Part shown: positions 13,683 through 29,487 of the stretch, piece after piece
How positions within the stretch are numbered: position 1 is the stretch's first letter
Layout: every line of letters begins with the position of its first letter
Assembly (NCBI GenBank): GCA_045613345.1
Contig: JAZLAT010000031.1
Location: 50,722 to 114,721, forward strand
Direction: 5' to 3'
Length of the DNA: 64,000 nt
From: Candidatus Enterousia sp.
Lineage (GTDB): Bacteria > Pseudomonadota > Alphaproteobacteria > Rs-D84
Notes under the pieces: generated by a model
Seen by the model: only the letters and a program-made list of their open reading frames with translations
What the model was told of the DNA's origin: nothing
Database searches by the model: none
Translations under genes and position numbers: made by a program

Positions 13683-13964
13683 TTACTTGCGTTTTTTTGG
13701 GCCTGTTTTTGATCGGGCGGCGCGCGCCCTGTGAGTGTCCGAAGGCAAAAATCGCGCAAATTCTTCCAAAGTCAATCCAGTTGCGTCCAAGATTTGTGCA
13801 ATACTTGACATGTTCGGCCAACGAAGCTGGCCATACTTTGAATAAGTCTTGCTGTGATTAAAAGTCGTCGGGTCCAATCCCGATATTACCGCCAATCGTG
13901 AACAAGATATCTTTAAATGCTTTGCAAGGTTTTGTATGCCCGCCCAAAGTTCTGAATGTGTCAT
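13683..13964 (-). CDS. Stand-alone XRE/HTH regulator (N-terminal domain of the alphaproteobacterial HTH-S24 family)
   Basis: H.ELW.GI..LA....S.S.LA..SGLDPTTFN.SK...RWP...SIA.IL.ATG..LEEF. Confidence 0.75.
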   Translation of the reverse strand: MTHSELWAGIQNLAKHLKISCSRLAVISGLDPTTFNHSKTYSKYGQLRWPNMSSIAQILDATGLTLEEFARFLPSDTHRARAARSKTGPKKRK

Positions 13965-14412: not shown

Positions 14413-15564
14413 ATGAAGAAATTTATAATCGCGGTTATGTGTGCGTTCTGTGTCGTGGGTGCATACGCCGCGGGTGAAAATGAACGCGCAACTTCGGTGG
14501 GCTATGTTGCCGAAGAATTAGAAACACGCCAAGACAAATTCAACAAATTGGGTGCCGATACCGCAATGACTTACAGTGGTTCAACCGATGGTGCGATTGG
14601 TACGTGTACTATCACGGGCGATTTGGGCGCGGAAACAAATACAACAAATACTGCGTTACCGACGGTTGGTGCGGTAAATACAAAAGTTGCAAACAAACAA
14701 GATGAATTGAACTTTGCGGCGAATACGGTTTTGATGGATACCGGTATTTCGGGCGAACCCGCCGCCAAAGGCATTTATCAATCGTCGGGTGATTATAATA
14801 CTCAAACAGATTCGCTTGTTGAAGCGGCGACTTTTAATGCGGCACTGCAAAATGCAATAAACAGTGAATTCACATGCGCACAACGCAAAGACCCCAACGA
14901 CCCCACCAGTAAATGTTTATTATTCAACATCTTTGCCCCGACACAAAATCTGATAATTCCAAACACATATACGCGGTTGGAATATTTGGAAAGCACTGGG
15001 ACCGAGTATATAGACAGCGGTGTAGAAGCGAAACCCGGCACCGTGGTCAAAACCAAATTTCAGATAATAGGAACGCCACCATCTAACACCGATAGAGGAT
15101 TTTTGGGATGTTATGGTTCATCTGGTTACCCATCATATTATTTATATCTGCATACTTTTCATGGTTCAGTTATCAATTCTTGGTTAGGAACAGGAGTAAA
15201 CAGCTTGTTTGTTCCGGATCACGATGAACACACACTTGAATTTGATGAAAATGGTAATGTCAATTTTGATGGAACACATATAGACAGTAATGTTTATGCG
15301 AACAGCATTGATGGTCCGAATATCGGGATATTTCGGTCCATACATCTTTATAGCTACACTATGCCATCAGTGGCATCAAGATTCTATTATGTGAAATTAG
15401 ATAATGGCACAATCAGACGCGACTTTATCCCCGCAAAACGCAACAGTGACGGCGAATTGGGGATGTATGACACGGTGTCGGGAACTTTCTTTACAAATGC
15501 GGGGACCGGAACATTTATTGCCGGACCAGAGCTCAGTTCAAATATTTATTTGCCGATGAATTAG
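14413..15564 (+). CDS. Secreted fibre/adhesin-like protein, paralog A
   Basis: Signal peptide; conserved N-terminal stalk; C-terminal YTRLEYLESTGTEYID...FIPAKRNSDGELGMYDTVSGTFFTNAGTGTF domain. Confidence 0.7.
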   Translation: MKKFIIAVMCAFCVVGAYAAGENERATSVGYVAEELETRQDKFNKLGADTAMTYSGSTDGAIGTCTITGDLGAETNTTNTALPTVGAVNTKVANKQDELNFAANTVLMDTGISGEPAAKGIYQSSGDYNTQTDSLVEAATFNAALQNAINSEFTCAQRKDPNDPTSKCLLFNIFAPTQNLIIPNTYTRLEYLESTGTEYIDSGVEAKPGTVVKTKFQIIGTPPSNTDRGFLGCYGSSGYPSYYLYLHTFHGSVINSWLGTGVNSLFVPDHDEHTLEFDENGNVNFDGTHIDSNVYANSIDGPNIGIFRSIHLYSYTMPSVASRFYYVKLDNGTIRRDFIPAKRNSDGELGMYDTVSGTFFTNAGTGTFIAGPELSSNIYLPMN

Positions 15565-15566
15565 TT

Positions 15567-15652
15567 TTAGTGTAAGCGGATAGTGGTTAGTATTATTTTG
15601 AATTATTTCGTAATTATGGATTGATTCCAGATACTACTAACCTCTGCCACTA
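15567..15652. repeat. Heptamer-bounded miniature inverted-repeat element, copy 1
   Basis: Reverse complement aligns with ~29385-29460 (GGTTAGTAG.ATCTGGAA...TAATTACGAAA...AATACTAACCACTATCC). Confidence 0.75.
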
Positions 15653-15802: not shown

Positions 15803-16213
15803 ATGCAAATGACCATAATCGAAGCAAACGATGAAACAATGACTTTGGCATATGCGGTCGCACGAATCGTTTATGCGGAAACTTTGGCAAAATCACTGCG
15901 TGTTGTCGAAGCATTAACATCGATGATTGCAAATGCATCACATGCGCGTGATGAAAGTGTTGCAAAAATAATTGCGGACAAAATACTTTTCGAATCGTTG
16001 ACCACCGAATCGATTCGCCATGAATATATAAATGTTGATGCATCGCGACGTGACTTTCAAATGTGCTTGCGTGTGGCGGTGCGAATGTTGCATGGCAATT
16101 TGCCCGATATGTGTCGTGGCGCAACGCGATTCCATCGCGAAGAATTGTTACCAGAATGGGCGATTTCGCGCGGATACATCGCGGACATAGATGGAATTTT
16201 ATTTTATGCATAA
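15803..16213 (+). CDS. SleB/Hydrolase_2-family cell wall hydrolase (lysin-like)
   Basis: RBS AGGAGG; ARIVYAET...D...GATRFH...PEWA...I.GILFY. Confidence 0.75.
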   Translation: MQMTIIEANDETMTLAYAVARIVYAETLAKSLRVVEALTSMIANASHARDESVAKIIADKILFESLTTESIRHEYINVDASRRDFQMCLRVAVRMLHGNLPDMCRGATRFHREELLPEWAISRGYIADIDGILFYA

Positions 16214-16229
16214 CGAATCGGTTTTTAAT

Positions 16230-16418
16230 ATGAGAAATTTTATTCATGGCGGTTTTTTTGCGAATCGCAAAACACAAATTATGACATGTGTCGGAATTGC
16301 ATCGGCATTGTGTGCATATTTAGTTGGCGATTCGGATCTGTTTGCTACACTCCAATCGCTGATTGCGATTGGCGGTGTTTATATGTTGCATAAATCAAAC
16401 AAAACAAAAGGAAAATAA
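16230..16418 (+). CDS. Small two-TM protein, holin-like
   Basis: 62 aa, two hydrophobic segments, basic C-tail, next to the lysin. Confidence 0.45.
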   Translation: MRNFIHGGFFANRKTQIMTCVGIASALCAYLVGDSDLFATLQSLIAIGGVYMLHKSNKTKGK

Positions 16419-16419
16419 A

Positions 16420-17079
16420 ATGGAAAATGTACCAGAAAAATTTCTGAAAGAAGACGGAACATTGAACAGTGACGCATTGATAAAATCATATACAGAATTA
16501 GAAAAAAAGATGGGGAATATGATTTCGGTGCCGGATGAAAATTCTGATGAATCGGCGCAAAGCCGCTTTCGCCATGCGATTGGTGTGCCCGACAGTGCCG
16601 AAGATTACCCACACAATGAATTATTTGATGATGAAAATGTGCGTCAAGAATTTCATAAAATTGGTTTAACAAAAACACAAGTCGAAAAAATTTATAACAT
16701 CGCAAATGAATTTTTATCACCGATGTTATCCGAAATTATTTCTGTGCGTAATGAATCAAATGCGATTAGTGAATTAAAAGAATTTTTTGGTTCTGATGAA
16801 AAAATGCATGATGCATTGGTTGCAATAAAATCATTTGGTGAAAAATTTTTACCAACCGATGCGTTTAACGAACTGTGCTCTACACCCCGCGGAATCCAAG
16901 GTGTGTATAGGATGATGCAATCTATGGAACCACGTGTAGAAATTGAAAATTCTGAATCAAAAAAATTAACAGATTCCGATTTACGACGTATGATGCGTGA
17001 CCCAAAATATTGGCGCGATAACGATGCGGAATATGTTCGTAAAATTGAAAATGGATTTAAAAAATTGTATTCAGAATAA
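16420..17079 (+). CDS. Capsid assembly scaffolding protein
   Basis: PEKF...DALIKSYTELEKKMG, PDSAEDY, MMRDPKYWRD..AEYVRK...F..LY; located upstream of the capsid gene. Confidence 0.8.
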   Translation: MENVPEKFLKEDGTLNSDALIKSYTELEKKMGNMISVPDENSDESAQSRFRHAIGVPDSAEDYPHNELFDDENVRQEFHKIGLTKTQVEKIYNIANEFLSPMLSEIISVRNESNAISELKEFFGSDEKMHDALVAIKSFGEKFLPTDAFNELCSTPRGIQGVYRMMQSMEPRVEIENSESKKLTDSDLRRMMRDPKYWRDNDAEYVRKIENGFKKLYSE

Positions 17080-17205
17080 AAATTTTTGTAAAAAAAATAT
17101 AAAAAAATAATTTTTTTCTTTACTAATTTTTTTCTTTCGTATAAAATAAAATCAAGAACAAAAGAATTTGTTCTGTATAAAGAAACAATACGAAAGGAGA
17201 GAAGA

Positions 17206-17520
17206 ATGGCATTTACATTCTTGAAAACTGCGGCAAAGAAACCTGCTGCGAAAAAACCTGTTGCGGCTAAGAAGCCTGCGGCAAAGAAAGTTGCTGTGAA
17301 AAAACCTGCGGCGAAAAAAGTTGCGGCGAAGAAACCAGCAGTGAAAAAAGTTGCGGCAAAGAAACCGGTTGCAAAGAAAGTCGCTGTGAAAAAAGTTGCA
17401 GCAAAAAAACCAGTTGCTAAAAAAGTCGCGGCAAAAAAACCGGTCGCAAAGAAAGTTGCGGTTAAAAAACCGGTTGCCAAAAAAGCGTGTGCCAAAAAGG
17501 CATGTGCCAAGAAAAAATAA
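17206..17520 (+). CDS. Histone H1-like Lys/Ala/Pro/Val repeat protein (Hc2/BpH1-like)
   Basis: RBS AAGGAG; KKPAAKK/KKVAAKK pentapeptide repeats with varied codons; own terminator. Confidence 0.85.
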
Positions 17521-17539
17521 TGATATCGTATGATATCCC

Positions 17540-17566
17540 AAAATGCCCGCATCGCGGGCATTTTTT
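17540..17566 (+). terminator. Intrinsic terminator
   Basis: AAAATGCCCGC-ATC-GCGGGCATTTTTT. Confidence 0.8.
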
Positions 17567-17753
17567 AATGTAAAATTTTTCAGTTCGATATGCATATGTC
17601 TGTCGAACTGAATTTTTTTATATGGACAATCCATAACATATGGACCCGTGCAATTTGCAATTGGCGCCGTGTGCGGCATAACCAAGAACAAATTTTTTGG
17701 TTGGGCAAAAATATTTTGCTTTGGAATAAATTTTATAAACAAAAGGAATAAAT

Positions 17754-18572
17754 ATGTCTGTTTCCATAGATCAATCGTTTGTGAAACAATTCGAAGCGGA
17801 TGTTCATTTGGCGTATCAACAGATGGGAACCAAATTGCGTTCAACAATTCGCAGTAAATCTGGCGTCATCGGTGCATCTACAACATTTCAAAAAATCGGC
17901 AAAGGCATGGCCAGCACGAAATCTCGTCATGGTATTGTACCGGTAATGAACCTTAATCATACTCCGGTAGAATGCACTTTGGCAGATTACTATGCGGGTG
18001 ATTGGGTTGATGCGTTGGACGAATTAAAAGTCAATGTTGATGAACGTCGTGTTGTCGCGTCTGCGGGTGCGTATGCATTGGGACGCAAGACCGATGAACT
18101 GATTGTTGGCGCAATGAACAGCGCAACTCAATATGTTGGTGATTATTCTACTGGTTTGACCAAGACGCTGATTTTAGGTGCTTTGGAAAAACTGAATGAA
18201 AATGATGTGCCCGATGACGGTCGCAGATTTGCAGTTGTTGGCGTAAAACAGTGGAACGAATTGTTGGGAATTTCCGAATTTTCGTCGGCTGATTATGTTG
18301 GCACTGATTTGCCGTTTATCAACGGATGCGAAACCAGAAAATGGCTTGGCATTACATGGGTGATGTATAACGCGTTGCCGTTGTCTTCATCTACACATCG
18401 TGACTGCTTTATCTATCACGCTTCCAGCATTGGTCATGCGTGTGGTCAAGAAGTCAAAACAGACATCACATGGCATGGCGAACGCGCCGCGCACTTTATC
18501 AGCAACAGTATGTCCCAGGGCGCTGTGATGATTGATGGCGATGGCATTGTTCGCGTGAAGTGTGGTGAATAA
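17754..18572 (+). CDS. Phage major capsid protein (podovirus type)
   Basis: IDQSFVKQFEADVHLAYQQMGTKLR, DYYAGDWVD.LDELK, AYALGRKTDELI, ENDVP. Confidence 0.9.
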   Translation: MSVSIDQSFVKQFEADVHLAYQQMGTKLRSTIRSKSGVIGASTTFQKIGKGMASTKSRHGIVPVMNLNHTPVECTLADYYAGDWVDALDELKVNVDERRVVASAGAYALGRKTDELIVGAMNSATQYVGDYSTGLTKTLILGALEKLNENDVPDDGRRFAVVGVKQWNELLGISEFSSADYVGTDLPFINGCETRKWLGITWVMYNALPLSSSTHRDCFIYHASSIGHACGQEVKTDITWHGERAAHFISNSMSQGAVMIDGDGIVRVKCGE

Positions 18573-18597
18573 CATCAATAATCAAAAGGGGTAAACC

Positions 18598-18828
18598 ATG
18601 GCTTTTCAAAACAAAAATTTGTCGGTAATTGCATATGCAAACGGCTTTACATTGTGGCACTATGTTGCAAATGAAACATTGGCAACCATCACGGCAAGCG
18701 GTTATTTCAATGCGGTAAAAACATTGATGAACACCGGGGATGTCGTTATTATCAACGCTTCGGATAAAACTTCGATTATGAAAATCGCGGTATCCGACAG
18801 TGCAGTTACAACTGCGGCGTTAGATTAA
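18598..18828 (+). CDS. Small phage structural protein (possible capsid decoration)
   Basis: MAF..KNLSVIAYANGFTLWHY...GYFN; directly follows the capsid gene. Confidence 0.6.
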   Translation: MAFQNKNLSVIAYANGFTLWHYVANETLATITASGYFNAVKTLMNTGDVVIINASDKTSIMKIAVSDSAVTTAALD

Positions 18829-18908
18829 AATTGATTATTGTTTCATACGAATCGGGTCGGATTTCTTCCGACCCAAATTTTAATTTTCTAGATACGGGGT
18901 AAATAAAA

Positions 18909-19427
18909 ATGCTAACTAAAATAGATTTATGCTCTATGGCATTATTAAAGTTGGGAGAAAATCCCATTCAATCGTTGTCTGATGATACAGCCGCAGCAAA
19001 GTTAGGACGAACGTTATCAGATTTTGTTATCGACACTTTATTGTCTTTACATCCGTGGCGTTTTGCTTGTCGCACTTATACATTAGCGCGAGATGAAAAC
19101 GGTGATTTTAATATTCCGTCTGATGTATTGCGTATCGTCAAGACAAATGGTCATATCATGGAAGACAAAATTGTTTCTGACACAGATACATTGAATATCA
19201 CAGCCATAGTTCGTGTCGCACCAGATAAATTCCCAAGTTATTTTGCGTCATTAGTTGCAACAAAGTTAGCGGTTGAATTTTGTATGCCGTTGATTTCTGA
19301 TCAAACAGTATTTCGCACAATGGTTGCATTATACGAAACAGAATTGCAAACGGCAAAATTTGTGGACAGCACGACATCAATAAATTCCACCATAGAAAAC
19401 TTTTCTTTAATAGATACCAGATTTTAA
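18909..19427 (+). CDS. Tail tubular protein A / adaptor (T7 gp11-like)
   Basis: DLCSMALLKLGENPIQSL, HPWRFA, IPSDVLR, FPSYF...LA.E. Confidence 0.8.
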   Translation: MLTKIDLCSMALLKLGENPIQSLSDDTAAAKLGRTLSDFVIDTLLSLHPWRFACRTYTLARDENGDFNIPSDVLRIVKTNGHIMEDKIVSDTDTLNITAIVRVAPDKFPSYFASLVATKLAVEFCMPLISDQTVFRTMVALYETELQTAKFVDSTTSINSTIENFSLIDTRF

Positions 19428-19430
19428 AAC

Positions 19431-21152
19431 ATGGGGGCAAATACAATGGTAAACTTTATCAAAACACAAACGTCTTTTGCGAATGGCGAAGTTTCACCGA
19501 AATTCTTTGCCAATGAAGATATTCATGGATTGTCCCATATGGAAAATATGGATGTGATTTCTGGGGGTGGATTGGCGCGTCGCCCAGGGTTAAAGAAAGT
19601 TGCAAAATTGCCGTCCAGTGCAAGGCTTGTTTCATTATCCGTTTCCGAAAACAATAAATATGTATTGGCGATAATGAACGGTTTAACGCGTATATTTTCA
19701 GGGGAAAATTTTGTTCAAGATCTTTTTACACCGTGGGCTTATTCCGACCTTGATTTGTTACAATACGCGGAACGTTTTGGTACGATAATTTTCGTTCATC
19801 CGAATTACAGACCAAAAATTTTATATTTGGATAATGGCGTTTTTAAAATAAGTGATTTCACTTTCTCGTGGAATGCGGCCATAGATAACGTAAATATACC
19901 ATTTATGCGTTTTGAAGATTCCAAAGATATTACACTGACATTGACAAGCACAGACAACGGAACCAAAATCACAACGAATCATGATTTTTGGACAGCCGAC
20001 AATGTTAATGGATATTTGTCCTTTTTGGGTAAGACTTGGACAGTAACATCTTATATAAACGCGACAACAATTATTGCAACATGCCACGGTGTATTTACAA
20101 TGCCAAATGACCCTATTACGGATTGGTCCGAAGCAGTATTCAGTAATCGACGTGGTTGGCCGGCGGCAATAACTTTCCATCAAGACAGGTTGGTCTTTGG
20201 GGGTGCAAAATCATGGCCGGGCGGCATATGGATGTCATGTGTTGGCCGTCATGATGATTTTAATGTTGGAACCGGTCTTGATGATGATGCCATACATTTC
20301 ACATTGTTATCGGGACATCGTCAGCATGTATGCACGTTGGTCAGCAGTGATAATTTACAGATACTTACTTCCGAAGGTGAATGGGCGGTGTCCAGCAAAC
20401 CTTTGACACCAGAGTCTGTGGATATCAAGATGCACACTTCTATTGGCAGTCCATCGGACATATATCTGCCACCGCAACAGATGGAAGACAAAACGGTTTT
20501 TGTTGCCAACAACAAACGCGACGTTCGCGAATTAGTTTTGGATAATATTTCGGGAAATTATAATGCCGAAAACCTTAGTGAATTATCAGCGCATCTTATA
20601 AATAATCCGATTGATATGGCGTACAACAAAGTACAAAAGAAATTATTTGTTGTTATGTCATCGGGTGATATTGCAGTGTTGAATTATAATGCAGCGCTTG
20701 ATATATCCGCATGGGGGCGTTATACAACAAACGGAAAGTTTTATTCTGTGGTGGTGTCCAATGGGGATACATACACGGTGACAAAACGTGATACAGATTT
20801 TTATCTTGAATATTTTTCTGATTCAGAAACCCAAGATGCAACAACCAATACATACACGGTTCGCGCGGTTGGATTACCATTGATGTCTTCGGGACACAAT
20901 GTTCATCATTCGCGAATCAAGAAAATTACGGTTCGCCTGTATGATTCTAAAACTTTGTTCGTGAACAATCTGCGTGCGGATTTACCGAATGAAATCTATG
21001 CTGATGATGCGCCGGGATTTTCCGGAGATGTATCGGTGAATGTATTGGGCACAGGAAAAGAAATAGTCGATGCGCCATGGGAAATTTCAACCACAGACGC
21101 ATTACCAATCACTGTATTATCAGTCACGATATATGGTCGATATCAAATATAA
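19431..21152 (+). CDS. Tail tubular protein B / nozzle (T7 gp12-like)
   Basis: QTSFANGEVSP, GGLARRPG, GWPAAITFHQDRLVFGG, AWGRYTT.G. Confidence 0.8.
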   Translation: MGANTMVNFIKTQTSFANGEVSPKFFANEDIHGLSHMENMDVISGGGLARRPGLKKVAKLPSSARLVSLSVSENNKYVLAIMNGLTRIFSGENFVQDLFTPWAYSDLDLLQYAERFGTIIFVHPNYRPKILYLDNGVFKISDFTFSWNAAIDNVNIPFMRFEDSKDITLTLTSTDNGTKITTNHDFWTADNVNGYLSFLGKTWTVTSYINATTIIATCHGVFTMPNDPITDWSEAVFSNRRGWPAAITFHQDRLVFGGAKSWPGGIWMSCVGRHDDFNVGTGLDDDAIHFTLLSGHRQHVCTLVSSDNLQILTSEGEWAVSSKPLTPESVDIKMHTSIGSPSDIYLPPQQMEDKTVFVANNKRDVRELVLDNISGNYNAENLSELSAHLINNPIDMAYNKVQKKLFVVMSSGDIAVLNYNAALDISAWGRYTTNGKFYSVVVSNGDTYTVTKRDTDFYLEYFSDSETQDATTNTYTVRAVGLPLMSSGHNVHHSRIKKITVRLYDSKTLFVNNLRADLPNEIYADDAPGFSGDVSVNVLGTGKEIVDAPWEISTTDALPITVLSVTIYGRYQI

Positions 21153-21173
21153 ATATAACCAAAAGGAAAAAAT

Positions 21174-21521
21174 ATGGGACAAATTGTTTCAGACGTTACA
21201 GATATTTTAAACTATAAAGACAGCAAGAAAGATGCAAACGCAACAAAAAAACAAATATTGGCGGAAATTGCAGAAAATGAAGCCGAAAAACAAAACTTGG
21301 TAAAGAAAGTTTTGGCTTCGCAACGTGCGAAATACGGCGCTTCGGGTATGTCGGGCAAAGGATTAACCGAAACAGCGGTGTTAAATCGCATGAAGGCCGA
21401 AACCGAAGAACCATATGAAAATAAAAAGAAAGCAAGTTTGAAAAAATTAAACAATACCAAAGCAGCAAAAAAGAATTTGGTGTTATCGGTGTTGCAACAT
21501 TTGGATAAATTGATCGGATAG
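21174..21521 (+). CDS. Small coiled-coil protein, internal-virion-protein-like
   Basis: LASQRAKYGASGM.G motif; position after the nozzle gene. Confidence 0.5.
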   Translation: MGQIVSDVTDILNYKDSKKDANATKKQILAEIAENEAEKQNLVKKVLASQRAKYGASGMSGKGLTETAVLNRMKAETEEPYENKKKASLKKLNNTKAAKKNLVLSVLQHLDKLIG

Positions 21522-21526
21522 GGCAA

Positions 21527-22120
21527 ATGAGTGAATATAACCAATTCTTGGATTCTTGGAATTCGATATTGGGACTGACCACACCCGAACATCACCATAT
21601 TATGACAAATTTTCTTTGTGATGTTGTCAATGGCGATGTTCGGCGTGGATTGATGATGGCGTTTCGTCATTCAGGAAAATCAACAATAGTCGGGATATTT
21701 GCCGCATGCACATTATTTTTGCATCCTGAAACACGCATATTGATATTGTCTGCAGAAACACACCTTGCAACACGTATGGTTATGCATATACGTAATATAC
21801 TGGAAAACCATTCTTGGTGTGCAGATATGGTTCCGAAAAACAAGCGTGAATGGGCGGAAAACAAGATAACAATAAATCGTCCTATTGGTATTCGCGAACC
21901 GTCGGTTGTATGCCAAGGTATCATGGGGAATATCACCGGTATGCGTGCAGATTTAATAATATGTGATGATGTCGAAGTTCCAAATACTTGCAACACATCG
22001 CGAAAACGTGCGGCATTGCGAGAAAGATTGCGTGAATTGGATTTTATATTATCGCCACATGGTGGTATGATATACATCGGCACACCACATACATTGGATA
22101 CAATCTATCGGACGACTTAG
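21527..22120 (+). CDS. Terminase large subunit, N-terminal ATPase half
   Basis: Walker A AFRHSGKST, ITGMRADLIICDDVE (Walker B), IYIGTPH coupling motif, then a stop. Confidence 0.88.
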   Translation: MSEYNQFLDSWNSILGLTTPEHHHIMTNFLCDVVNGDVRRGLMMAFRHSGKSTIVGIFAACTLFLHPETRILILSAETHLATRMVMHIRNILENHSWCADMVPKNKREWAENKITINRPIGIREPSVVCQGIMGNITGMRADLIICDDVEVPNTCNTSRKRAALRERLRELDFILSPHGGMIYIGTPHTLDTIYRTT

Positions 22121-22128
22121 TATGTTTG
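22117..22128. repeat. 12-bp inverted repeat, left end of the dnaB block
   Basis: TTAGTATGTTTG matches the reverse complement of 25431-25442 (TTACTATGTTTG) at 11/12. Confidence 0.5.
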
Positions 22129-22767
22129 TTTTGATAAAGAACTTGTCAATTCATGCAAGCGATGCAAAAGTTCCAATCCTTCATCACCGAATCGAGGTAA
22201 ATATGTTTCATATTCGGGCATGTCAATTTGAACCTGGGCACGCAAGCGATCATTCACAGGATGACTTAAAGTGTCTTTTGCCATGTCCCAAACCTTGTAT
22301 GCATTCGCTGTTTGAACAATTTCATCAAATTGTTTGCGTTTGTCGGAATGGTTTTTCAAAATACGTTGACCCAATATAACCCAATCAACACCCATTCCAC
22401 GAACCACAGGCGTATTCATAAAATGATCTAAACCTGAATGCGATGGAGTAAAAGAATCAATTGCTTCAATTAATTCGTGTATAGTATCTGGTTCGACATC
22501 GGTATTGACATTGGATTCTGCCAACATGCCACCATAAGGCAACAACTCGCGCGCAATGGAATTCATTGGTGTCTTACCGCTGCGCAGATTTTGTATATGT
22601 TGAATCAAAAACTTCCCGGTCGGCAAATCTTGCAGTTCAACCATAACGTCATCGGTTGCTTCATCAACGAATATCTTGTTGACCGCACCCCAACCGCCAA
22701 CAATAACATGTGCTTGGCGATAAAGGTTCAACAGTTTTTGAGCAATAACGCTTGCCTTGGCTTTCAT
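22117..22767 (-). CDS. Hypothetical protein
   Basis: 216-aa ORF with RBS CAGGAG, in an operon with the XRE regulator. Confidence 0.7.
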   Translation of the reverse strand: MKAKASVIAQKLLNLYRQAHVIVGGWGAVNKIFVDEATDDVMVELQDLPTGKFLIQHIQNLRSGKTPMNSIARELLPYGGMLAESNVNTDVEPDTIHELIEAIDSFTPSHSGLDHFMNTPVVRGMGVDWVILGQRILKNHSDKRKQFDEIVQTANAYKVWDMAKDTLSHPVNDRLRAQVQIDMPEYETYLPRFGDEGLELLHRLHELTSSLSKQTY

Positions 22768-22792
22768 CTCCTGGACCCTCCGTATAAAGTGG

Positions 22793-23803
22793 TTATTCGG
22801 TCAAAATCATAATGACTTTGTGCATGGTTTTTGCCGTAATTTTTTCGTCTGGACCCGACATTTGACCGTAAACATTACCTTTTGAATCGCGACGAACCAC
22901 GGCGATATTTGCCATAATTTGTTCTTCAGGATTTAATGATTTAAAATCTGCATCAATAAATACCGCCAAATCGCCAACAGCCGGGGTCTTTTTAGAATCA
23001 GCGAACACATAAGATTTGGTTGGAATAAATCCGCCCAAACGTTTGGAATTTGGCACCACGGCATACACGTTTGTGCGACCTTCAAGGTTGGCGGGTGCCG
23101 GAATAATCTTTGTGTCGGACTTTTTGAATACGATGGCTTTTCCATCGGGTGTGCCGAATACAGGAATCAATTTGCGACGCGCATTGTTATACAATTTTGC
23201 ACCGAACAAATGTTCATGGTTTTCGTCAAAATCAGCCGCCGAATCACCCGGTGACAGCACCGCGGTCACTTTTTCTTTGACCTTGTTCATTTGTTTGACC
23301 AATTCGCCCGATTTATAAAGTTCGGCAATCTTGTCAAACATGCTTTCGACACTGTGCGCAAAAGAACGTGCCAAAGGTTCGATTTCGTTTTCGTATATTT
23401 CGCGTTGACCGACTTCTATCTTGTGATATACCGATAAAGTCATACCGGCATCTTTGGCGGCCTGGGCAATAGTTTTGCCGGATTCTTGGCGGATTTTGCG
23501 TAATCCACTGCCAAAGATTTTCAAACCGCTGTCTTCGTTGTCATTCATACGGCGCGCGATTTCATTTTGCCATTTCGTTGCGACTTCGTCCGTATCTTTG
23601 ATAAAGATATCAGACAACCGGCATCCCAAAATGTTGCAGATATTTAATAACTGCTTTTGGTTCAAGCGTCGTACACCTTTTTCAATTTTTGAAATTGCCG
23701 ATAATGAAAGTCCCGAACGTCGTGCCAATTCGGTCATTTTCATTCCCGCGGCAAGACGGATGTTGCGAATATTATTTGGAAAAATGATTTCTTCTTGGGC
23801 CAT
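22793..23803 (-). CDS. Tandem XRE-HTH transcriptional regulator with S24-like C-terminus
   Basis: Two HTH_3 motifs (IRNIRLAAGMKMTELARRSGLSLSAISKIEKG; LRKIRQESGKTIAQAAKDAGMTLSVYHKIEVG) and a C-terminal IPVFG...YAV...P.VGD region. Confidence 0.8.
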   Translation of the reverse strand: MAQEEIIFPNNIRNIRLAAGMKMTELARRSGLSLSAISKIEKGVRRLNQKQLLNICNILGCRLSDIFIKDTDEVATKWQNEIARRMNDNEDSGLKIFGSGLRKIRQESGKTIAQAAKDAGMTLSVYHKIEVGQREIYENEIEPLARSFAHSVESMFDKIAELYKSGELVKQMNKVKEKVTAVLSPGDSAADFDENHEHLFGAKLYNNARRKLIPVFGTPDGKAIVFKKSDTKIIPAPANLEGRTNVYAVVPNSKRLGGFIPTKSYVFADSKKTPAVGDLAVFIDADFKSLNPEEQIMANIAVVRRDSKGNVYGQMSGPDEKITAKTMHKVIMILTE

Positions 23804-23886
23804 AGAAAACTCCTTGGGTAAATCTTGACAAAATGATAATGAATTTTGTTAAACTTGGCAAGAAAATAATTCAAGGCTTTGAACTA

Positions 23887-25437
23887 TCAATCAATATCGT
23901 CGGGAATCTCAGAAATATCAATTGGTGTCGCATCAGATACATCGGTTTCTGGGGCAACCGGATTTTCAGCAAATTCAGGAACACGACCCGCCATTTCATC
24001 AAGGTTGTCGAATAAACTGAATTCTGCCAAGAAAGCCAAGTTTATTGTATCGGTGCGACCATGACGATTCTTGCCGATAATAAGGTCGGCTTTGCCACGA
24101 GCCTTTTCAAGGCGGTGTTGCCATGAATCCACGGATTTTTCACTTGCCGTATTTGATAAACGATTCGATGGGTCACGGTTTTGCAGATAATATTCTTCAC
24201 GATATGTGAACATAACAATGTCGGCATCTTGTTCAATAGACCCTGATTCACGCAAATCTGATAATTGTGGACGTTTGTCATCGCGTGATTCGACACTGCG
24301 TGACAATTGTGACAAGGCAATCACAGGAACATTGAATTCCTTGGCCATCATTTTAAGTCCACGTGTAATTTCGGACAATTCTTGGACGCGGTTATCTTTA
24401 TTCTTGCCGCCCGGTGAAGTCAAAAGTTGCAGATAATCAATCACAATCAGTGCAATGCCATGATATTTGCGCGCCAAACGTCTAACACGTGTGCGAATCA
24501 TCGGTACCGACATACCCGGAGTATCATCAATGAAAAGCGGAATGCGTCCAATTGCATCGGAAAACTGCGTCATTTTAAGGAAGTCTTCATCACTTAAAGA
24601 ACCTTCACGCATAGCCGATGCCGAAATCCTTGATTGCGAAGACAAAACACGTGCCGCCAATTCTGATGCGCCCATTTCCAAACTGAAAAACGCCACGGCA
24701 CCATTATATTGCGGATTGGCACGCCCAGAAAAGATTGCGTTTGCAGCATTAAATGCGATATTCATGGCAAGTGCCGTTTTACCCATACCGGGTCGTCCTG
24801 CAATAATAATAAGATTGGATTTATGCATACCACTTATTGCGCGATCCAAATCGGTAAGCCCCGTGGTAAGACCAGACAGCTTTCCATCGGCCTTGTACGC
24901 GATTTCTGCTTCGGTCAATGCATCTTTTAATGCACTTGCAATCGGTGTCACATCGCGCCCGATGTCACCAATGGTTGCCATATTGAAAAGTTTTTGTTCG
25001 GCGACTTCGATCTGGCTTGATACCGGGTTGTCAATATCTTCAACAAAAGCGGCGTCCGTAATAGATTGTCCAATACCAATAAGTTCGCGTCGCATTGCGT
25101 TTTCGTGCACAATGCGTCCATATTGCTCCACATTGACAACGGTTGCACCCGCGCCGGCAAGTTGAGTTAAATAGTCAACGCCACCGACAGATTCCAAAGT
25201 GCCCTGTTGGTCAAGGTAATTTTTGATGGTGATTATATCAAACAATTCACCCGTAGAAAATTGCCGCAAAGCCAATTTATAGATTTCTTGGTGTGCAGGA
25301 TGGGAAAAATCTTCGGGACGCAAGAATTCGGAAATCTTTTCCAATGCGCGATTGTTCATCAACACCGCCGCCAACACGGCTTGTTCGGCTTCTATATTCG
25401 TTGGCAAAGATTTGGGAGTAAAGTCCATGTCAAACAT
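23887..25437 (-). CDS. dnaB: Replicative DNA helicase
   Basis: EAEQAVL, AGRPGMGKT, FFSLEM, IDYLQL, LSQLSR and DLRESGSIEQDAD motifs; full N-terminal domain. Confidence 0.97.
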   Translation of the reverse strand: MFDMDFTPKSLPTNIEAEQAVLAAVLMNNRALEKISEFLRPEDFSHPAHQEIYKLALRQFSTGELFDIITIKNYLDQQGTLESVGGVDYLTQLAGAGATVVNVEQYGRIVHENAMRRELIGIGQSITDAAFVEDIDNPVSSQIEVAEQKLFNMATIGDIGRDVTPIASALKDALTEAEIAYKADGKLSGLTTGLTDLDRAISGMHKSNLIIIAGRPGMGKTALAMNIAFNAANAIFSGRANPQYNGAVAFFSLEMGASELAARVLSSQSRISASAMREGSLSDEDFLKMTQFSDAIGRIPLFIDDTPGMSVPMIRTRVRRLARKYHGIALIVIDYLQLLTSPGGKNKDNRVQELSEITRGLKMMAKEFNVPVIALSQLSRSVESRDDKRPQLSDLRESGSIEQDADIVMFTYREEYYLQNRDPSNRLSNTASEKSVDSWQHRLEKARGKADLIIGKNRHGRTDTINLAFLAEFSLFDNLDEMAGRVPEFAENPVAPETDVSDATPIDISEIPDDID

Positions 25438-26275
25438 AGTAAACGAAAAAAATGTTTTTTCAACGCCTTTTTTATCAGGCTATGTCGAATTAAAGATTCC
25501 GATTATGGATTCGAACGGAAATTCCGCATGGCCAGCGGTTTTTCCGGCGGAAAAAATAGAACAAATTCGGCAAACTGTGGGACCGCGACATTTTTCGGCG
25601 CAAATGATGCTGGAATACGTGCCACCAGACAAAATCAGGCTTGACCCGGGCGGAATAAAAATTTACGCAGACGAATTTGATGGTCGGTTCGGTCGCATCG
25701 GCGAACACCGAATCACTGGTGCCGCCATTTACTGGGACCCGTCCGGTGGCAGGCGCGGTGGCGACAACAGTGTATGCGTGCTTGTCTATCGTGATGATAA
25801 TAACAGGTATATTTTTATACATGATGTCATGTATATGGTTGTACCTGATTCGGTTGAATACCCATTGGCGTACCAGTGTGAGCGTGCTTTGGACTTCGTT
25901 CGTCGCTATGGTTTGCACAGTTTATCGGTTGAAACGAACGGCATTGGTGGTGCATTGCCAGAAATCTTGCGCAACACAGTTAAACGTGCGGGATACGGCA
26001 TACAAATAACACCAATAACCAACAGCCGCCGCAAAGAAGACCGAATCTTGGATGCAATTGAACCATTGTTATCTACGGGGCGACTTTTTGCACATCAAAG
26101 AATTACGCAAACACCACTGATTTCAGAAATGCTGGCTTGGACACCCCTTGGTGGGGCGGAACATGATGACGGATTGGACGCAGTGGCGGGTGCGATTACA
26201 TGCAATCCTGTACCGGTGCGCGCAACAAATTATGCGCATCATCGGTATATGGCAAATACAGACTTTAAGGTTTAA
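25427..26275 (+). CDS. Terminase large subunit, C-terminal lid/nuclease half
   Basis: SAWP..F, FSAQMML, YWDPS, VETNGIG, RKEDRI, HDDGLDA; the in-frame ATG at 25427 overlaps the dnaB start head-to-head. Confidence 0.85.
   Translation: MSNIVNEKNVFSTPFLSGYVELKIPIMDSNGNSAWPAVFPAEKIEQIRQTVGPRHFSAQMMLEYVPPDKIRLDPGGIKIYADEFDGRFGRIGEHRITGAAIYWDPSGGRRGGDNSVCVLVYRDDNNRYIFIHDVMYMVVPDSVEYPLAYQCERALDFVRRYGLHSLSVETNGIGGALPEILRNTVKRAGYGIQITPITNSRRKEDRILDAIEPLLSTGRLFAHQRITQTPLISEMLAWTPLGGAEHDDGLDAVAGAITCNPVPVRATNYAHHRYMANTDFKV
25431..25442. repeat. 12-bp inverted repeat, right end of the dnaB block
   Basis: CAAACATAGTAA, spanning the dnaB start codon. Confidence 0.5.
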
Positions 26276-26296
26276 CAAACAAAAAAAGGAAAAAAA

Positions 26297-27523
26297 ATGA
26301 AATATGATTTGGAAAAAATGTATCGGCGGGCGATTGCCTTGCGTGAACCTTGGTTAAAGCGTTGGGACGATGCGCGCCGCTATACAATGCCGCAATCAGA
26401 TTCAGACATGGCAACATTGTTCGATGCGACGGCGGCGGATGCGGCAGACAATTTGGCGGCGTGTATGTATTCGTTGTTGACGCCACCGGAATCTTTGTGG
26501 ATTCACCTTGTCCCCGAAAGCGACGAATCGCCCAATGCAGAAGTTGCGACGGCGGCATTGCGCGCGAACCTTAACGATTCGAATTTCTATACGACGGTTC
26601 ATCAATGCTATCTGGATTTAGTGACTTTGGGAACGGCATGTCTGTTTATGGCGGAAAGCCCAATTGGTGCCGCCAGTGCGTTCACATTTACGGCGATACC
26701 AATGACCGATATAGCGATTTTGCCGAATGCGGTTTTCCACACGGCGTCTATCACATTACAAGATGTCGCGACACGTTATCCTGAATGGACACCGCCGCGC
26801 GAATTTCGCGACAAAATGAAACAGAACCCAGAAACCACGGTGCGGTTGGTCCAAGCTTTGGTCGATAAAGAATTTACGGCATGGTTGGATGTTGGTGGCG
26901 ATATAGAAAACAATATCGTATCCCGTGGAGAATTCGAAACAAATCCTTATTTGATTTTCCGTTGGGCGTTGCTTAGTGGCGAACAATACGGCATTGGTCC
27001 AATTTTGCGCGCGTTGCCGGACATCAAGACGGCAAATAAAGTTGTCGAATTGGTCTTGAAAAATGCGACTATCGCGGTCAGTGGTATATGGCAGGCGGAC
27101 GATGATGGGGTTATAAACCTTGGTAACATCAACCTGACCCCGGGGGCGATTATACCCAAAGCCGTGGGCAGTTCGGGTCTGACGCCATTGGCAACGGGTG
27201 CGAATTTCGATGTATCACAAATAGTCTTGCGCGATTTGCGCGACCGCATACGCCACACAATGTTGGCAGACCGGCTTGGGTTACTTTCTGAAAAAGAAAT
27301 GACCGCCACAGAAATATTGGCGCGCAACGCCGATATGCTGCGTATTTTGGGCGCGACATATGGACGGTTGCTGCATGAATTTATAAGACCATTGTGCGAT
27401 CGCGGACTTCAAATTTTGGCGCGTCGTGGTGTAATTGACAAGATTTCGTTGCATGGTGATGCAGAATTAAAATACATTGCGCCAATCGCACAAATGGTTG
27501 CAAATAACGATACGATAATTTAA
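26297..27523 (+). CDS. Portal / head-tail connector protein (T7 gp8/Bbp21 family), compact
   Basis: LFDATAADAADNLAA, SNFY...YLDLVTLGTA, RW...GEQYG.GP...ALPDIK, MTATEI. Confidence 0.9.
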   Translation: MKYDLEKMYRRAIALREPWLKRWDDARRYTMPQSDSDMATLFDATAADAADNLAACMYSLLTPPESLWIHLVPESDESPNAEVATAALRANLNDSNFYTTVHQCYLDLVTLGTACLFMAESPIGAASAFTFTAIPMTDIAILPNAVFHTASITLQDVATRYPEWTPPREFRDKMKQNPETTVRLVQALVDKEFTAWLDVGGDIENNIVSRGEFETNPYLIFRWALLSGEQYGIGPILRALPDIKTANKVVELVLKNATIAVSGIWQADDDGVINLGNINLTPGAIIPKAVGSSGLTPLATGANFDVSQIVLRDLRDRIRHTMLADRLGLLSEKEMTATEILARNADMLRILGATYGRLLHEFIRPLCDRGLQILARRGVIDKISLHGDAELKYIAPIAQMVANNDTII

Positions 27524-27744
27524 TGGTGACCATAATGAAAAAAATAGAACACGCATACGCGCGAACTTTTTCGTCTGAATCTGGGGCGATTGTGTTGGGA
27601 CACTTGCGCCGTATCACGATTGAACGCGTCTTGGGGCCAAATGCAACGGACGCGGAACTTCGCACACTTGAAGGTATGCGGTCATTGGTTCATCAAATAG
27701 AGCAACTGATATCACGGGGGCGGGGCGATGCAGAAACAACATAA
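27523..27744 (+). CDS. Bbp19-like small phage protein
   Basis: YARTFSSESGAIVLGHLR...EGMRSLV..I; follows the portal gene. Confidence 0.7.
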   Translation: MVTIMKKIEHAYARTFSSESGAIVLGHLRRITIERVLGPNATDAELRTLEGMRSLVHQIEQLISRGRGDAETT

Positions 27745-27988
27745 CAGTTTATCAAACATCATCGACACCCTGCGTAATGGTTGGTTTTTAATCGCATTTA
27801 TCGCGGGTCTGATATATTGGGTTGCGCGGCAAGATAATGCGCTTGTGGAACTGGACCGATTGACGGCACGAATGACGACATTGGAAAATCGCACGACTAT
27901 TCTGGAAACCGGAATAGGGCAATTACAATTAAAAATTGATGGAATCAAAGAAGATTTGACGCTGATTAAAACGGCGGTAATAAAATAG
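27728..27988 (+). CDS. Single-TM plus coiled-coil protein (possible lysis accessory)
   Basis: Hydrophobic residues ~18-31, then a heptad pattern. Confidence 0.5.
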   Translation: MQKQHNSLSNIIDTLRNGWFLIAFIAGLIYWVARQDNALVELDRLTARMTTLENRTTILETGIGQLQLKIDGIKEDLTLIKTAVIK

Positions 27989-28552: not shown

Positions 28553-29359
28553 ATGAAAAAAGTTTTATTTGCAATTATATGTTTGTTTTGTGTATGTGGC
28601 GCACGTGCGGCAAATGAAAATGCGGCAACAAGTAAAGAATATGTTGATACAGAACTTGCCACAAAACAGCCAACAATCCCCGCGGCGGGTGATAATGTCG
28701 TTATGACATTTGATTCAAACGCCACTGATGGCATAGGGACAAAAAATATTTATGACCCGTCGGGCGATTATGCATCACAGACGGACGCACTTGTCACCGC
28801 CGCAACGGCGAACGCCGCCGTTCAAATGGCAATAAATGGTGAATTTTATTGCAAAGAATGGAGTACCATCGTCGAAAACGATTGCTGGCTTTGGGGTATA
28901 AAAAGCGAATTACACAACAGCCCAAACCTTTTGTGCACCGTATCGGCTCGAGAAATTGCTTCGTTTGATCCACAAACATCGATTATGTCCAATACCTATA
29001 CAGATACCAGAGATCATGTACAGTTATGTTTATTCCATTCCAACGGTATCGTCGTTGCGGGTTCGGGTATTGGATGTATAGATTTGTTAGATGCTGGTCA
29101 AACCAAGCATTATCATTTTACTAGCGCGAATGACAGCGACCATATACAAATAAAACATAATGGTAAAGCACGGGATTTTCGCCTGTGGTTTCCGGTGGAA
29201 CCCTCCACAGAATATACATTCGTTGCCAAGGCACTAAGTGTTGACCCAACCACAATCGGTGGAATGCAGGTGCAAATAATGTTGGTGCCCGGCAATTACA
29301 CCGGCGATGAAATTATTCCATGCGGACAGAATATATATATCCCACAGAACCAGCAATAG
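28553..29359 (+). CDS. Secreted fibre/adhesin-like protein, paralog B (different C-terminal domain)
   Basis: Signal peptide plus AANENAATSKEYVDTELATKQPTI...AVQMAINGEF.C; C-terminus unrelated to the other paralogs. Confidence 0.7.
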   Translation: MKKVLFAIICLFCVCGARAANENAATSKEYVDTELATKQPTIPAAGDNVVMTFDSNATDGIGTKNIYDPSGDYASQTDALVTAATANAAVQMAINGEFYCKEWSTIVENDCWLWGIKSELHNSPNLLCTVSAREIASFDPQTSIMSNTYTDTRDHVQLCLFHSNGIVVAGSGIGCIDLLDAGQTKHYHFTSANDSDHIQIKHNGKARDFRLWFPVEPSTEYTFVAKALSVDPTTIGGMQVQIMLVPGNYTGDEIIPCGQNIYIPQNQQ

Positions 29360-29487
29360 AGTGTTTAGTGTTAGTGTTTAGTGTTAGTGGTTAGTAGCAT
29401 CTGGAACAAGCCCCTAATTACGAAACTATTCCAGAGAATACTAACCACTATCCACTAACACTAACCACTAACACTAACACTAACCAC
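29360..29487. repeat. Heptamer-bounded miniature inverted-repeat element, copy 2
   Basis: (TTAGTG/TTAGTGG)n, then core, then (CACTAA/CCACTAA)n. Confidence 0.8.

Follow-up and report, generated by a model that had tools for sequence, protein, structure and literature searches.

The DNA analysed here, hereafter the window, is a stretch of 64,000 nucleotides (nt) from a metagenome-assembled genome (MAG) of Candidatus Enterousia, a member of the alphaproteobacterial order Rs-D84, and we are highly confident that the locus between its positions 15803 and 27988 is a domesticated particle system of podovirus type. To judge by its sequence, this module encodes a lysin, a scaffolding protein, a major capsid protein, a tail adaptor, a tail nozzle, a portal and a Bbp19-like protein of a T7/HTVC010P-type podovirus. 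The reading that best accounts for it is a vertically inherited, chromosomally fixed viriform, similar to a gene transfer agent (GTA) and derived from a T7/HTVC010P-type podovirus, whose role would be the packaging and transfer of DNA; we give this reading a probability of about 0.6. Several features of GTAs and viriforms are found together in it, namely chromosomal phage-derived structural, packaging and lysis genes, vertical inheritance with purifying selection, and no self-propagation, as it holds no integrase and no replication module, has its fibre gene elsewhere and contains host genes. A first-pass annotation of this DNA had already suggested a GTA domesticated in the lineage: the domestication is borne out by presence, synteny, congruent trees and low substitution ratios, whereas its restriction to this lineage is not, since the same module occurs in many other alphaproteobacterial families, and the GTA function, that is, the packaging of host DNA and its transfer, is still something that we infer from the genes.

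The source genome (G000) comprises 1.07 Mb in 33 contigs, is 93.6% complete and carries the window on a contig of 118 kb (C31). Its close relatives are MAGs recovered from guts, among them those of ruminants and horses, and labelled Candidatus Enterousia or Alphaproteobacteria. Enterousia has been assigned to Rs-D84, an order of reduced genomes that probably belong to partner-dependent bacteria (PMC12306168); a term search of that paper for phage or capsid found no mention.

The capsid gene is present in 38 of the 41 relatives and, across the order, in 295 of 328 genomes (211 of the 224 of high quality), representing 28 of 30 genera and giving a single match in nearly all of them. In a tblastn comparison of 23 window proteins with the fetched Enterousia loci of at least 15 kb, gene order was identical among the loci listed, including the succession of the N-terminal half of the large terminase (TerL-N), three genes on the opposite strand (o216, hth336 and dnaB) and the C-terminal half (TerL-C), while the flanks of the module vary between genomes among the same loci. 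Dozens of independent MAGs share this arrangement. Within the genus, identity is 79-86% for the capsid protein, 61-82% for DnaB and 72-79% for BamA; across families the capsid retains 64-72%, against 42-55% for DnaB, 32-43% for BamA and 38-42% for the portal. The locus was also found in 20 sequencing runs of DNA type (Logan contigs) from 12 studies, with no RNA-type run among those listed.

All parts of the module are under purifying selection and follow the host tree. The ratio of non-synonymous to synonymous substitution rates (dN/dS) was calculated by the Nei-Gojobori method; the codon alignments comprised 40-93 sequences for each gene, and only pairs whose dS fell between 0.05 and 1 were counted (26 to 2316 pairs per gene). 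Median values were 0.045 for dnaB, 0.046 for the portal, 0.066 for TerL-N, 0.070 for the capsid and 0.073 for hth336; they reached 0.102 for the nozzle, 0.104 for p76 (the small protein encoded after the capsid gene), 0.118 for o216 and 0.119 for o86, and were highest for the adaptor and TerL-C (0.166 each), for o115 and Bbp19 (0.227 each) and for the scaffold (0.274). Internal stops were absent from the 93 capsid, 77 TerL-N and 76 TerL-C sequences. Stop-bearing sequences in the lysin (13/40), o75 (12/42) and scaffold (12/81) sets are probably due to over-long N-terminal open reading frames (ORFs) in the queries, an explanation offered for these sets as a whole rather than case by case.

For the comparison with the host, a module tree was built from capsid, portal, TerL-N and adaptor (1063 columns) and set against a tree of BamA (763 columns) in 28 genomes, 17 of them Enterousia and 11 from other families; 13 of the 41 relatives were left out, their module or BamA locus being missing or unfetched. 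Both trees come from quick LG+G4 searches, with long-branch warnings for G027 and the f2 pair. They have 21 of 25 bipartitions in common, whereas in 1000 label shuffles the number shared averaged 0.24 and never exceeded 3, and each family forms one clade in both. Thus the three observations by which the first-pass annotation had proposed to judge domestication, namely presence and synteny across the lineage (near-universal, single-copy and with fixed order among the genus loci listed), congruence with the host tree and dN/dS (0.05-0.27), all give strong support to domestication.

The most distinctive feature of the locus is its large terminase, listed as one gene in the first reading and in fact divided into two. 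TerL-N (21527-22120, plus strand) holds the ATPase core, and TerL-C (25427-26275, plus strand; PF22530 and PF17289) the rest of the ATPase domain together with the RNase-H-like nuclease; 3.3 kb and three genes on the opposite strand lie between them. The two correspond to positions 276-459 and 481-704 of phrog_38. Against NF033889 (500 positions, cut-off 150 bits), TerL-N scores 217.8 bits over positions 2-190, while TerL-C scores 120.3 bits with its best stretch at 332-500, which is below the cut-off on its own; these halves were the only products to which the NCBIfam scan returned names. It is clear from sequence comparison that both halves belong to the T7-type large terminase, although not in its single-chain architecture: T7 gp19 is one chain of 586 amino acids (aa), and the chain of the module is cut near gp19 residue 213. 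TerL-N aligns with residues 40-211 of T7 gp19 (8dgc_E, E 5e-22), while TerL-C gave no match to solved structures by sequence.

TerL-N contains a Walker A motif (AFRHSGKS), a Walker B motif (DLIICDDVE) and motif III (GTPHT), and terminates 9 residues past the latter, its stop codon overlapping that of the convergent o216. The likely start of TerL-C, placed by homology and sequence, is the ATG at 25427, which lies 13 residues ahead of the conserved strand FLxGYxxLKIP; with this start TerL-C and dnaB, arranged head to head, overlap by the first 11 nt of dnaB. Residues G50, K51, S52, D147, D148, E150 and G185-H188 are invariant in 17 N halves, and D104, E169, D247, D248 and D251 in 15 C halves, unsplit relatives included in both sets, so that the split terminase still looks functional. 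Two explanations for the gap were rejected. An intron finds no support, as no Rfam family reached its gathering score in the window or in loci L099, L100, L101 and L104, and the gaps of L102 and L100 gave only chance-level matches (E up to 1). Split inteins were rejected by inspection, since the match between TerL-N and the terminase profile runs on to the last residues of this half, and only 13 residues of TerL-C precede the conserved strand. The existence of half-length TerL families in PHROG (phrog_4758 with 243 positions and phrog_5573 with 250) hints at similar fissions in some phages.

A complex prediction for the two halves scored 0.87, against 0.00 for the best of three controls; this mark was reached by 58 of 80 solved complexes and by 2 of 110 mismatched pairs, counts that are rough because our own alignments were used. 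At least 80% of contacts agreed between runs, the partner had a predicted local distance difference test (pLDDT) value of at least 79, and in the predicted interface residues 14-26 of TerL-C face residues 40-47 of TerL-N, which form the strand preceding Walker A. As T7 gp19 has been solved as one chain (8dgc, 4bij), this result may mirror a known structure; it is a modelled likeness to the gp19 fold, not a sign that the halves bind in the cell.

The fission is present in all six Rs-D84 families sampled, which suggests that it is ancestral to the order and that the halves became separated later. Eleven loci from the five other families carry the module without dnaB, and TerL-N is always a separate stretch in them. 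The halves are adjacent in five (L099-L102 and L104), where TerL-N stops after a motif of the form GTPHxxxIY and TerL-C follows 166 to about 550 nt further on as an ORF of its own, which starts with its own methionine in L099-L101 and L104 and is in a different frame in four of the five. Five loci of family f3 have the portal gene between the halves, and L097 shows no C half within the stretch fetched. Outside Rs-D84, TerL is one open frame in 26 of the 27 loci in which both parts were found. The sole broken one, in L196 (G511:C20, 17864-19244), is frameshifted, with a span that is not a multiple of three and 11 stops if read through.

The genes lodged between the terminase halves, all on the minus strand, are o216 (22117-22767; 216 aa), which is the second gene of the hth336 operon, hth336 itself (22793-23803), encoding a 336-aa Xre-type helix-turn-helix (HTH) protein (PF01381, E 2.6e-20), and dnaB (23887-25437; PF03796 and PF00772), the replicative helicase. 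The first-pass annotation had remarked that the module encloses this helicase and is interleaved with host genes, dnaB and a histone-H1-like gene, which agrees with what is found: dnaB has a single match in the genome and no second copy turned up in the 93.6%-complete assembly. DnaB is matched in 40 of the 41 relatives, at one locus in nearly all (the extra rows being split hits or G023), and in other families its gene is either over 90 kb away from the capsid gene or on a different contig. A phage-derived dnaB that displaced the host gene was considered and rejected on these grounds, namely its presence in 40 of 41 relatives, an identity that falls with taxonomic rank and its lack of linkage to the capsid gene in other families. 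Likewise, hth336 gives a single match in five of five other-family genomes, which place it on different contigs from dnaB and the capsid gene or well away from both, and o216 stands directly beside the hth336 homologue, away from the module, in three other Rs-D84 families (G035, G029 and G027). By these sequence comparisons, dnaB, hth336 and o216 are host genes.

Within family f1, G055 shows the Enterousia arrangement, and in G326, G322 and G305 no module gene lies within 1.5 kb of dnaB. A locus from another genus of the same family, L204 (G312:C5, 771-3991), has TerL-N, dnaB and TerL-C all on one strand, with neither hth336 nor o216; the insert was therefore rearranged or inverted within the family.

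The functions that would make the module mobile were not recognised, as the first reading had noted for integrase, attachment sites, polymerase or primase, small terminase (TerS) and large ejection proteins. The 118-kb contig holds no match to PF00589 (five occur in the genome, all on other contigs), no polymerase or primase was found among the window ORFs scanned, and neither the module scans nor a search with a candidate TerS recognised such a gene. No large ejection protein related to those of the nearest phage, the Pelagibacter phage EXVC031P 'Hodr' (OQ414635.1), was found in the genome. The composition is host-like, as had also been stated, with a guanine-plus-cytosine (GC) content of 0.420 against 0.424 for the genome (12-kb genome windows: mean 0.423, standard deviation 0.022), and no capsid match was obtained among plasmid records at E 1e-40. 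The absence of a contig integrase, the host-like GC, the host core genes inside and the differing flanks indicate at the sequence level that the module is not a mobile prophage. It likewise would not be a complete virus of T7/HTVC010P type, as only structural, packaging and lysis genes are recognised and the large virion ORFs of Hodr are unmatched in the genome.

No attachment-like repeats bracket the module, the only direct repeats being 71-73% identical pieces of a multicopy surface-protein gene family. Two same-strand paralogues of this family flank it (14413-15564 and 28553-29359); its members have a signal peptide and a conserved N-terminus, ATSxxYVxxELxxKQ, give 98 high-scoring segment pairs at about 49 places in the genome, and match no Pfam or PHROG family. 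Both paralogues are followed by related 85-nt elements (15561-15645 and 29365-29449) that are 71% identical and contain an inverted repeat. Further copies of the family adjoin the unlinked fibre gene on contig C22 described below, with no blastp match between the family and the fibre. On the other hand, a GenBank record of 5 kb from human faeces, MT838907.1, unannotated and named 'Bacteriophage sp.', encodes a capsid protein 64.6% identical to that of the module, far closer than that of any isolated phage; the record may represent a piece of a bacterial genome similar to those of Rs-D84, or DNA of this kind from a virome preparation.

The remaining parts, all on the plus strand and named from the ORF listing together with Pfam, PHROG and NCBIfam scans, complete the inventory. 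A putative endolysin of 136 aa (15803-16213) has a weak match to phrog_938 (E 1.7e-6), and its homologues sit after TerL in other alphaproteobacterial modules. The next gene (16191-16418) encodes a 75-aa protein that is kept in Enterousia loci; the first-pass annotation called it holin-like, and although the small open membrane-protein gene is there, it has no PHROG match and is a holin candidate by position and hydrophobic stretch only. The scaffolding protein (16420-17079) is T7 gp9-like (PF05396, E 2.9e-10; phrog_3742). Between it and the capsid gene, a Lys/Ala-rich histone-H1-like protein of 104 aa is encoded at 17206-17520 (PF07382 HC2, E 1.7e-16); a K+A-rich ORF occupies this gap in 73 of 74 Enterousia loci, the protein is matched also in the f3 locus L098, and the gene contains a 15-nt periodic repeat (family D1). 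The major capsid protein has 272 aa (17754-18572; PF19821, E 1.4e-71), and the 76-aa p76 that follows it (18598-18828; phrog_18004, E 1.3e-12), in the same position in Hodr, is a candidate minor head protein. The T7 gp11-like tail adaptor (18909-19427; phrog_394, E 7.3e-32, with a weak match to PF17212 Tube) precedes the gp12-like nozzle of 573 aa (19431-21152; phrog_376, E 2.8e-80), which diverges fastest of all parts, with 44-69% identity inside the genus.

After the nozzle, o115 (21174-21521; 115 aa) has no family match of its own but tblastn matches in L171 (35% identity over a stretch) and L187. A 159-aa gene in the same after-nozzle position of L170 matches T7_gp14 (PF24072) below threshold (E 7e-4, 20 bits against a 27-bit cut-off), and o115 is possibly a small internal virion protein of gp14 type, its likeness to the L170 gene having been judged by eye without alignment. 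Beyond TerL-C lie the gp8-like portal of 408 aa (26297-27523; PF12236, E 1.1e-80), shorter than the portal ORFs of 488-585 aa in three other Alphaproteobacteria, and the small Bbp19-like protein (27523-27744; PF25181, E 5.4e-12), whose gene follows the portal also in Hodr and other Alphaproteobacteria. The last gene, o86 (27728-27988), has a product of 86 aa that comprises a single hydrophobic helix and a probable coiled coil, matches only phrog_736 (E 0.001), is 57-92% identical among Enterousia loci and is possibly a lysis or assembly accessory. Pfam and PHROG matches thus agree with the earlier account of open lysin, scaffold, capsid, adaptor, nozzle, portal and Bbp19-like genes, with a compact portal and nozzle. 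Nearly identical start contexts, AAAAGGAAxAAAxATG (repeat family D8), precede the capsid, o115 and portal genes (17741-17756, 21161-21176 and 26284-26299).

A tail-fibre gene is absent from the module locus of this genome. Many Enterousia loci have an extra gene of 185 aa between o115 and TerL-N, lacking here, whose start presumably resembles the N-terminal domain by which the T7 gp17 tail fibre binds the adaptor. On contig C22 lies a 759-aa ORF that is a candidate for an unlinked tail fibre: its first 140 residues are 34-41% identical to the short in-module fibre, and its long remainder looks repeat-rich. The C-terminal region of the fibre varies greatly between genomes, from short in-module to long unlinked forms.

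Upstream of the lysin, an HTH protein of 93 aa (13683-13964, minus strand) was detected by tblastn with the repressors of L171, L170 and L165 (41-46% identity) and is a candidate regulator. It matches only the HTH domain of LexA/CI-like (HTH plus peptidase S24) repressors and has no S24 domain. Homologues occur in 59 of the Enterousia loci fetched and, where coordinates were compared, precede the lysin by about 1.3 kb; orthology is unsure because the genome has three paralogues. Further LexA-like HTH paralogues lie at C31:50137-50364, a few hundred bases before the window start, and at C5:247910-248137. Divergent LexA/CI-like repressors stand beside modules elsewhere in the class (PF00717 in that of L171); they were found in 12 of the 47 loci searched (36 from the class and 11 from other Rs-D84 families), none of the 12 belonging to Rs-D84.

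As its annotated sequence indicates, this genome of about 1 Mb keeps a set of genes for DNA uptake and processing: a ComM-type (Mg-chelatase-like) gene at 59189-60715 on the minus strand, ComEC at C5:132060-132875 and DprA at C5:56408-57028. A 1437-aa ORF of the window (53855-58168) has no Pfam family at E 0.001.

The module extends well beyond the order. In a class sample of 301 evenly drawn genomes, 73 have a capsid match; outside Rs-D84, 46 of 298 match at 51-68% capsid identity, in genomes of 0.9 to 6.5 Mb; a further three match at 41-43%, and another 21 do not exceed 37%. Among the carriers are genomes of 3-6 Mb, several of which are assembled into one to five contigs. Most of the longer loci among the thirty-six fetched from outside the order have the sequence portal, Bbp19, scaffold, capsid, p76, adaptor, nozzle, (fibre and small genes), TerL, lysin, and the GC content of the class loci ranges from 0.34 to 0.71. 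In families f62, f92, f132, f149 and f48 there is no portal or scaffold gene within 10 kb of the capsid gene, both genomes agreeing where two were sampled. A tree of 47 rows recovers Rs-D84 as one clade (SH-aLRT 99) and same-family pairs as sisters in eight of nine cases, and the flanks are conserved within genera and partly within families. In L165, L170 and L171 the module spans 12-15 kb between neighbours that look host-like by eye from their first residues (Lon, class-I lysyl-tRNA synthetase, ABC transporter), with no integrase or replication genes seen by eye from the ORF starts; L170 encodes a PF11351 'GTA_holin_3TM' protein (E 1.1e-20).

A gene of 96-106 aa just before TerL in larger Alphaproteobacteria is a candidate TerS, and was not found in the source genome or in the 11 other-family Rs-D84 loci. 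In 14 loci of other Alphaproteobacteria, a 122-128 aa protein with the signature AWFWF...RPCE is encoded upstream of the portal, and has a weak homologue at C15:42808-43128 in the source genome (28-30% identity); it could be a regulator or a small terminase. The capsid relatives carry only the names 'phage capsid protein' or 'hypothetical protein' among 120 listed of 3834. Altogether, the module has the appearance of an old element that Alphaproteobacteria have widely retained, and the best explanation of its presence in Rs-D84 is vertical inheritance from it. What is new and specific to the lineage is the conserved fission of TerL, with dnaB and a host operon lodged between the halves.

If the module works as a GTA-like viriform, the following model would interconnect its parts. 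It would be derepressed in some cells, with the adjacent LexA-like HTH lineage as the candidate control, and procapsids would be built on the portal with the help of the scaffold. TerL-N and TerL-C would then re-associate non-covalently, the first strand of TerL-C completing the ATPase sheet, and the motor would start on host DNA with no sequence preference, as may be expected because no TerS is recognised, the TerL-C nuclease cutting by a headful mechanism. Adaptor, nozzle and fibres would close the particle, which the lysin and membrane proteins would release. Finally, the fibre would bind a related cell and, because no large ejection proteins were found, the DNA would enter by the retained ComEC, DprA and ComM route before recombining.

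Several points weigh against this GTA-like role. No particle, packaged DNA or transfer has been seen, and the lack of a recognisable TerS and of large ejection proteins could mean that neither packaging nor delivery of DNA takes place. The fissioned TerL might be enzymatically crippled, and TerL-C evolves faster than TerL-N (dN/dS 0.17 against 0.07). If capacity were like that of relatives of about 35 kb, a headful could hold the whole 12-kb locus, in which case the cargo would not be smaller than the element, as the classic GTA criterion asks. Four genomes that are 91-98% complete (G090, G159, G293 and G294) lack both capsid and portal, so these are real losses and the module is dispensable; a fifth capsid-less genome, G254, has the portal. 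One stop-bearing sequence each was met in the nozzle (1/79), o216 (1/77), portal (1/71) and Bbp19 (1/61) sets, and the dN/dS figures are approximate, with dS medians of 0.8-0.9 that are near saturation. As for the class, the case for vertical descent is made only from family labels and from flanks that are partly conserved, a pattern that family-specific phages could mimic.

The alternative that best survives, though unlikely, is that phage-like particles or their parts are kept for something other than transfer, such as programmed lysis that frees the cell contents, the killing of competitors or interaction with a partner, any packaging of DNA being incidental. Rs-D84 genomes have been described as reduced and predicted to depend on other cells (PMC12306168), and repurposing of GTA head genes has been raised for reduced endosymbionts (PMC9254644); the want of a TerS and of large ejection proteins would fit as well, and the fast-evolving nozzle and variable fibre C-terminus are what an arms race over target surfaces would produce. 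However, the ATPase and nuclease residues of TerL and the portal are conserved like the capsid, which a non-DNA function would not need, ComEC, DprA and ComM are retained in a genome of about 1 Mb, and a full tail is kept here, unlike the head-only pattern reported in PMC9254644.

A DNA-free protein nanocompartment or capsid-only structure for storage or enzymology, the other option of the first-pass annotation, is very improbable. That no other part is nearly as well conserved between families as the capsid and that the gene for the basic H1-like protein adjoins it would both suit a compartment; yet the catalytic residues are kept in both terminase halves, and conservation under purifying selection extends to the genes for portal, terminase halves, adaptor, nozzle, fibre and lysis, none of which encapsulin-like compartments need, and this option is disfavoured for these reasons.

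Still less credible is a temperate phage or satellite that continues to excise and spread horizontally, for instance by means of host recombinases. Prophage finders have called similar regions of Sinorhizobium HTVC010P-like prophages (PMC10460002), and the five tyrosine-recombinase hits elsewhere in the genome and the faecal 'Bacteriophage sp.' record could be cited in its favour. On the other side stand the shared bipartitions with the host gene tree, the single match in nearly all matching genomes, the enclosure of the only dnaB found and of other host genes, the lack of replication genes, att-like repeats and a plasmid copy, and the unlinked fibre; moreover, neither excised or circular forms nor near-identical copies in unrelated hosts were seen. 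A functionless relic kept only by linkage to essential genes such as dnaB, for which the terminase broken into two ORFs and the loss of the module in a few lineages might speak, is the least credible of all and is contradicted by the selection data, given low dN/dS and almost no stops in 60-90 sequences per gene; against it stand also equal conservation in families with dnaB elsewhere, and small genomes reported to be 81-94% coding with no build-up of pseudogenes (PMC12306168).

The joint proposal, namely a second, ancient, vertically inherited GTA family in Alphaproteobacteria, podovirus-derived, unrelated to RcGTA, present in about one sixth of sampled genomes and kept at about 1 Mb, which in Rs-D84 has a two-polypeptide TerL with halves up to kilobases apart and dnaB head to head with one of them, is put forward tentatively, as being true in all its elements at somewhat less than even odds. 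Literature searches returned no description of the module as a GTA or of such a fissioned TerL; supplementary files, which may bear on this, were outside their scope. GTAs are one of the few cases in which cells have turned a virus into an organelle-like device, and the well-studied alphaproteobacterial example is siphovirus-derived. A podovirus-derived vertical counterpart, kept more tightly than DnaB or BamA, would mean that such domestication took place at least twice in the class. The survival of the module under extreme genome reduction, at about 1% of a 1-Mb genome, would imply a strong benefit, for example recombinational repair against mutational decay in small, partner-dependent populations, and the conserved fission within the ATPase domain would amount to a natural experiment on the construction of a packaging motor.

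Among known viruses, Hodr is the nearest, with 44% identity in the capsid and 33% in the portal, followed by HTVC010P-type pelagiphages and by some Vibrio phages at about 32% capsid identity. Hodr has the same order of portal, Bbp19, scaffold, one further gene, capsid, small protein, adaptor and nozzle. It differs in being a 34-kb phage with many other genes, including large virion ORFs of 783 and 1247 aa; its ORFs of at least 80 aa have no match in the source genome outside the module except two weak hits on other contigs, and its TerL has no detectable similarity to the halves in the window. The parts of the module are also shorter, with a portal of 408 against 527 aa and a nozzle of 573 against about 919 aa.

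Among the domesticated systems, BaGTA of Bartonella (Bartogtaviriformidae) is likewise an alphaproteobacterial GTA distinct from RcGTA and tied to a helicase-containing run-off replication (ROR) region; its portal gene (1863 nt) and TerL gene (1344 nt) are described as adjacent, and its phage-derived helicase lies beside a phage origin (Guy et al. 2013, PMC3610622). The helicase of the module, by contrast, is the host single-copy DnaB, located elsewhere in sister families, and the two systems are set apart by the described gene sizes of BaGTA rather than by sequences. Purifying selection on RcGTA-type head genes, with repurposing raised, has been reported for reduced endosymbionts (George et al. 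2022, PMC9254644). FpGTA of Faecalibacterium prausnitzii is also a GTA-like element of a gut bacterium and judged 'most likely podovirus-like'; it differs, by description only, in belonging to a Firmicute, in having two operons with baseplate genes and in having had its packaging shown experimentally.

The earlier view that the module is T7-like and not similar to RcGTA, the type known from Rhodobacter, Caulobacter and others, is upheld: its parts are of T7/HTVC010P type, with a PF19821 capsid, a gp8-type portal, a gp11-type adaptor and a gp12-type nozzle, no tape measure and no long tail, and no PF05065 (HK97-type) capsid was found in the 93.6%-complete genome. The HK97-type capsid, siphovirus tail and tape measure that mark RcGTA-like elements (Rhodogtaviriformidae) are thus not what the locus contains, and it differs further in its fissioned TerL and in having no identified TerS. 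RcGTA recipients need homologues of ComEC, DprA and ComM. In its general design, on the other hand, the module resembles RcGTA, both being phage-derived clusters of head, tail and packaging genes that are inherited vertically under purifying selection with neither integrase nor replication genes, that have accessory genes such as fibres at other loci, and whose particles are, or in the module would be, released by lysis.

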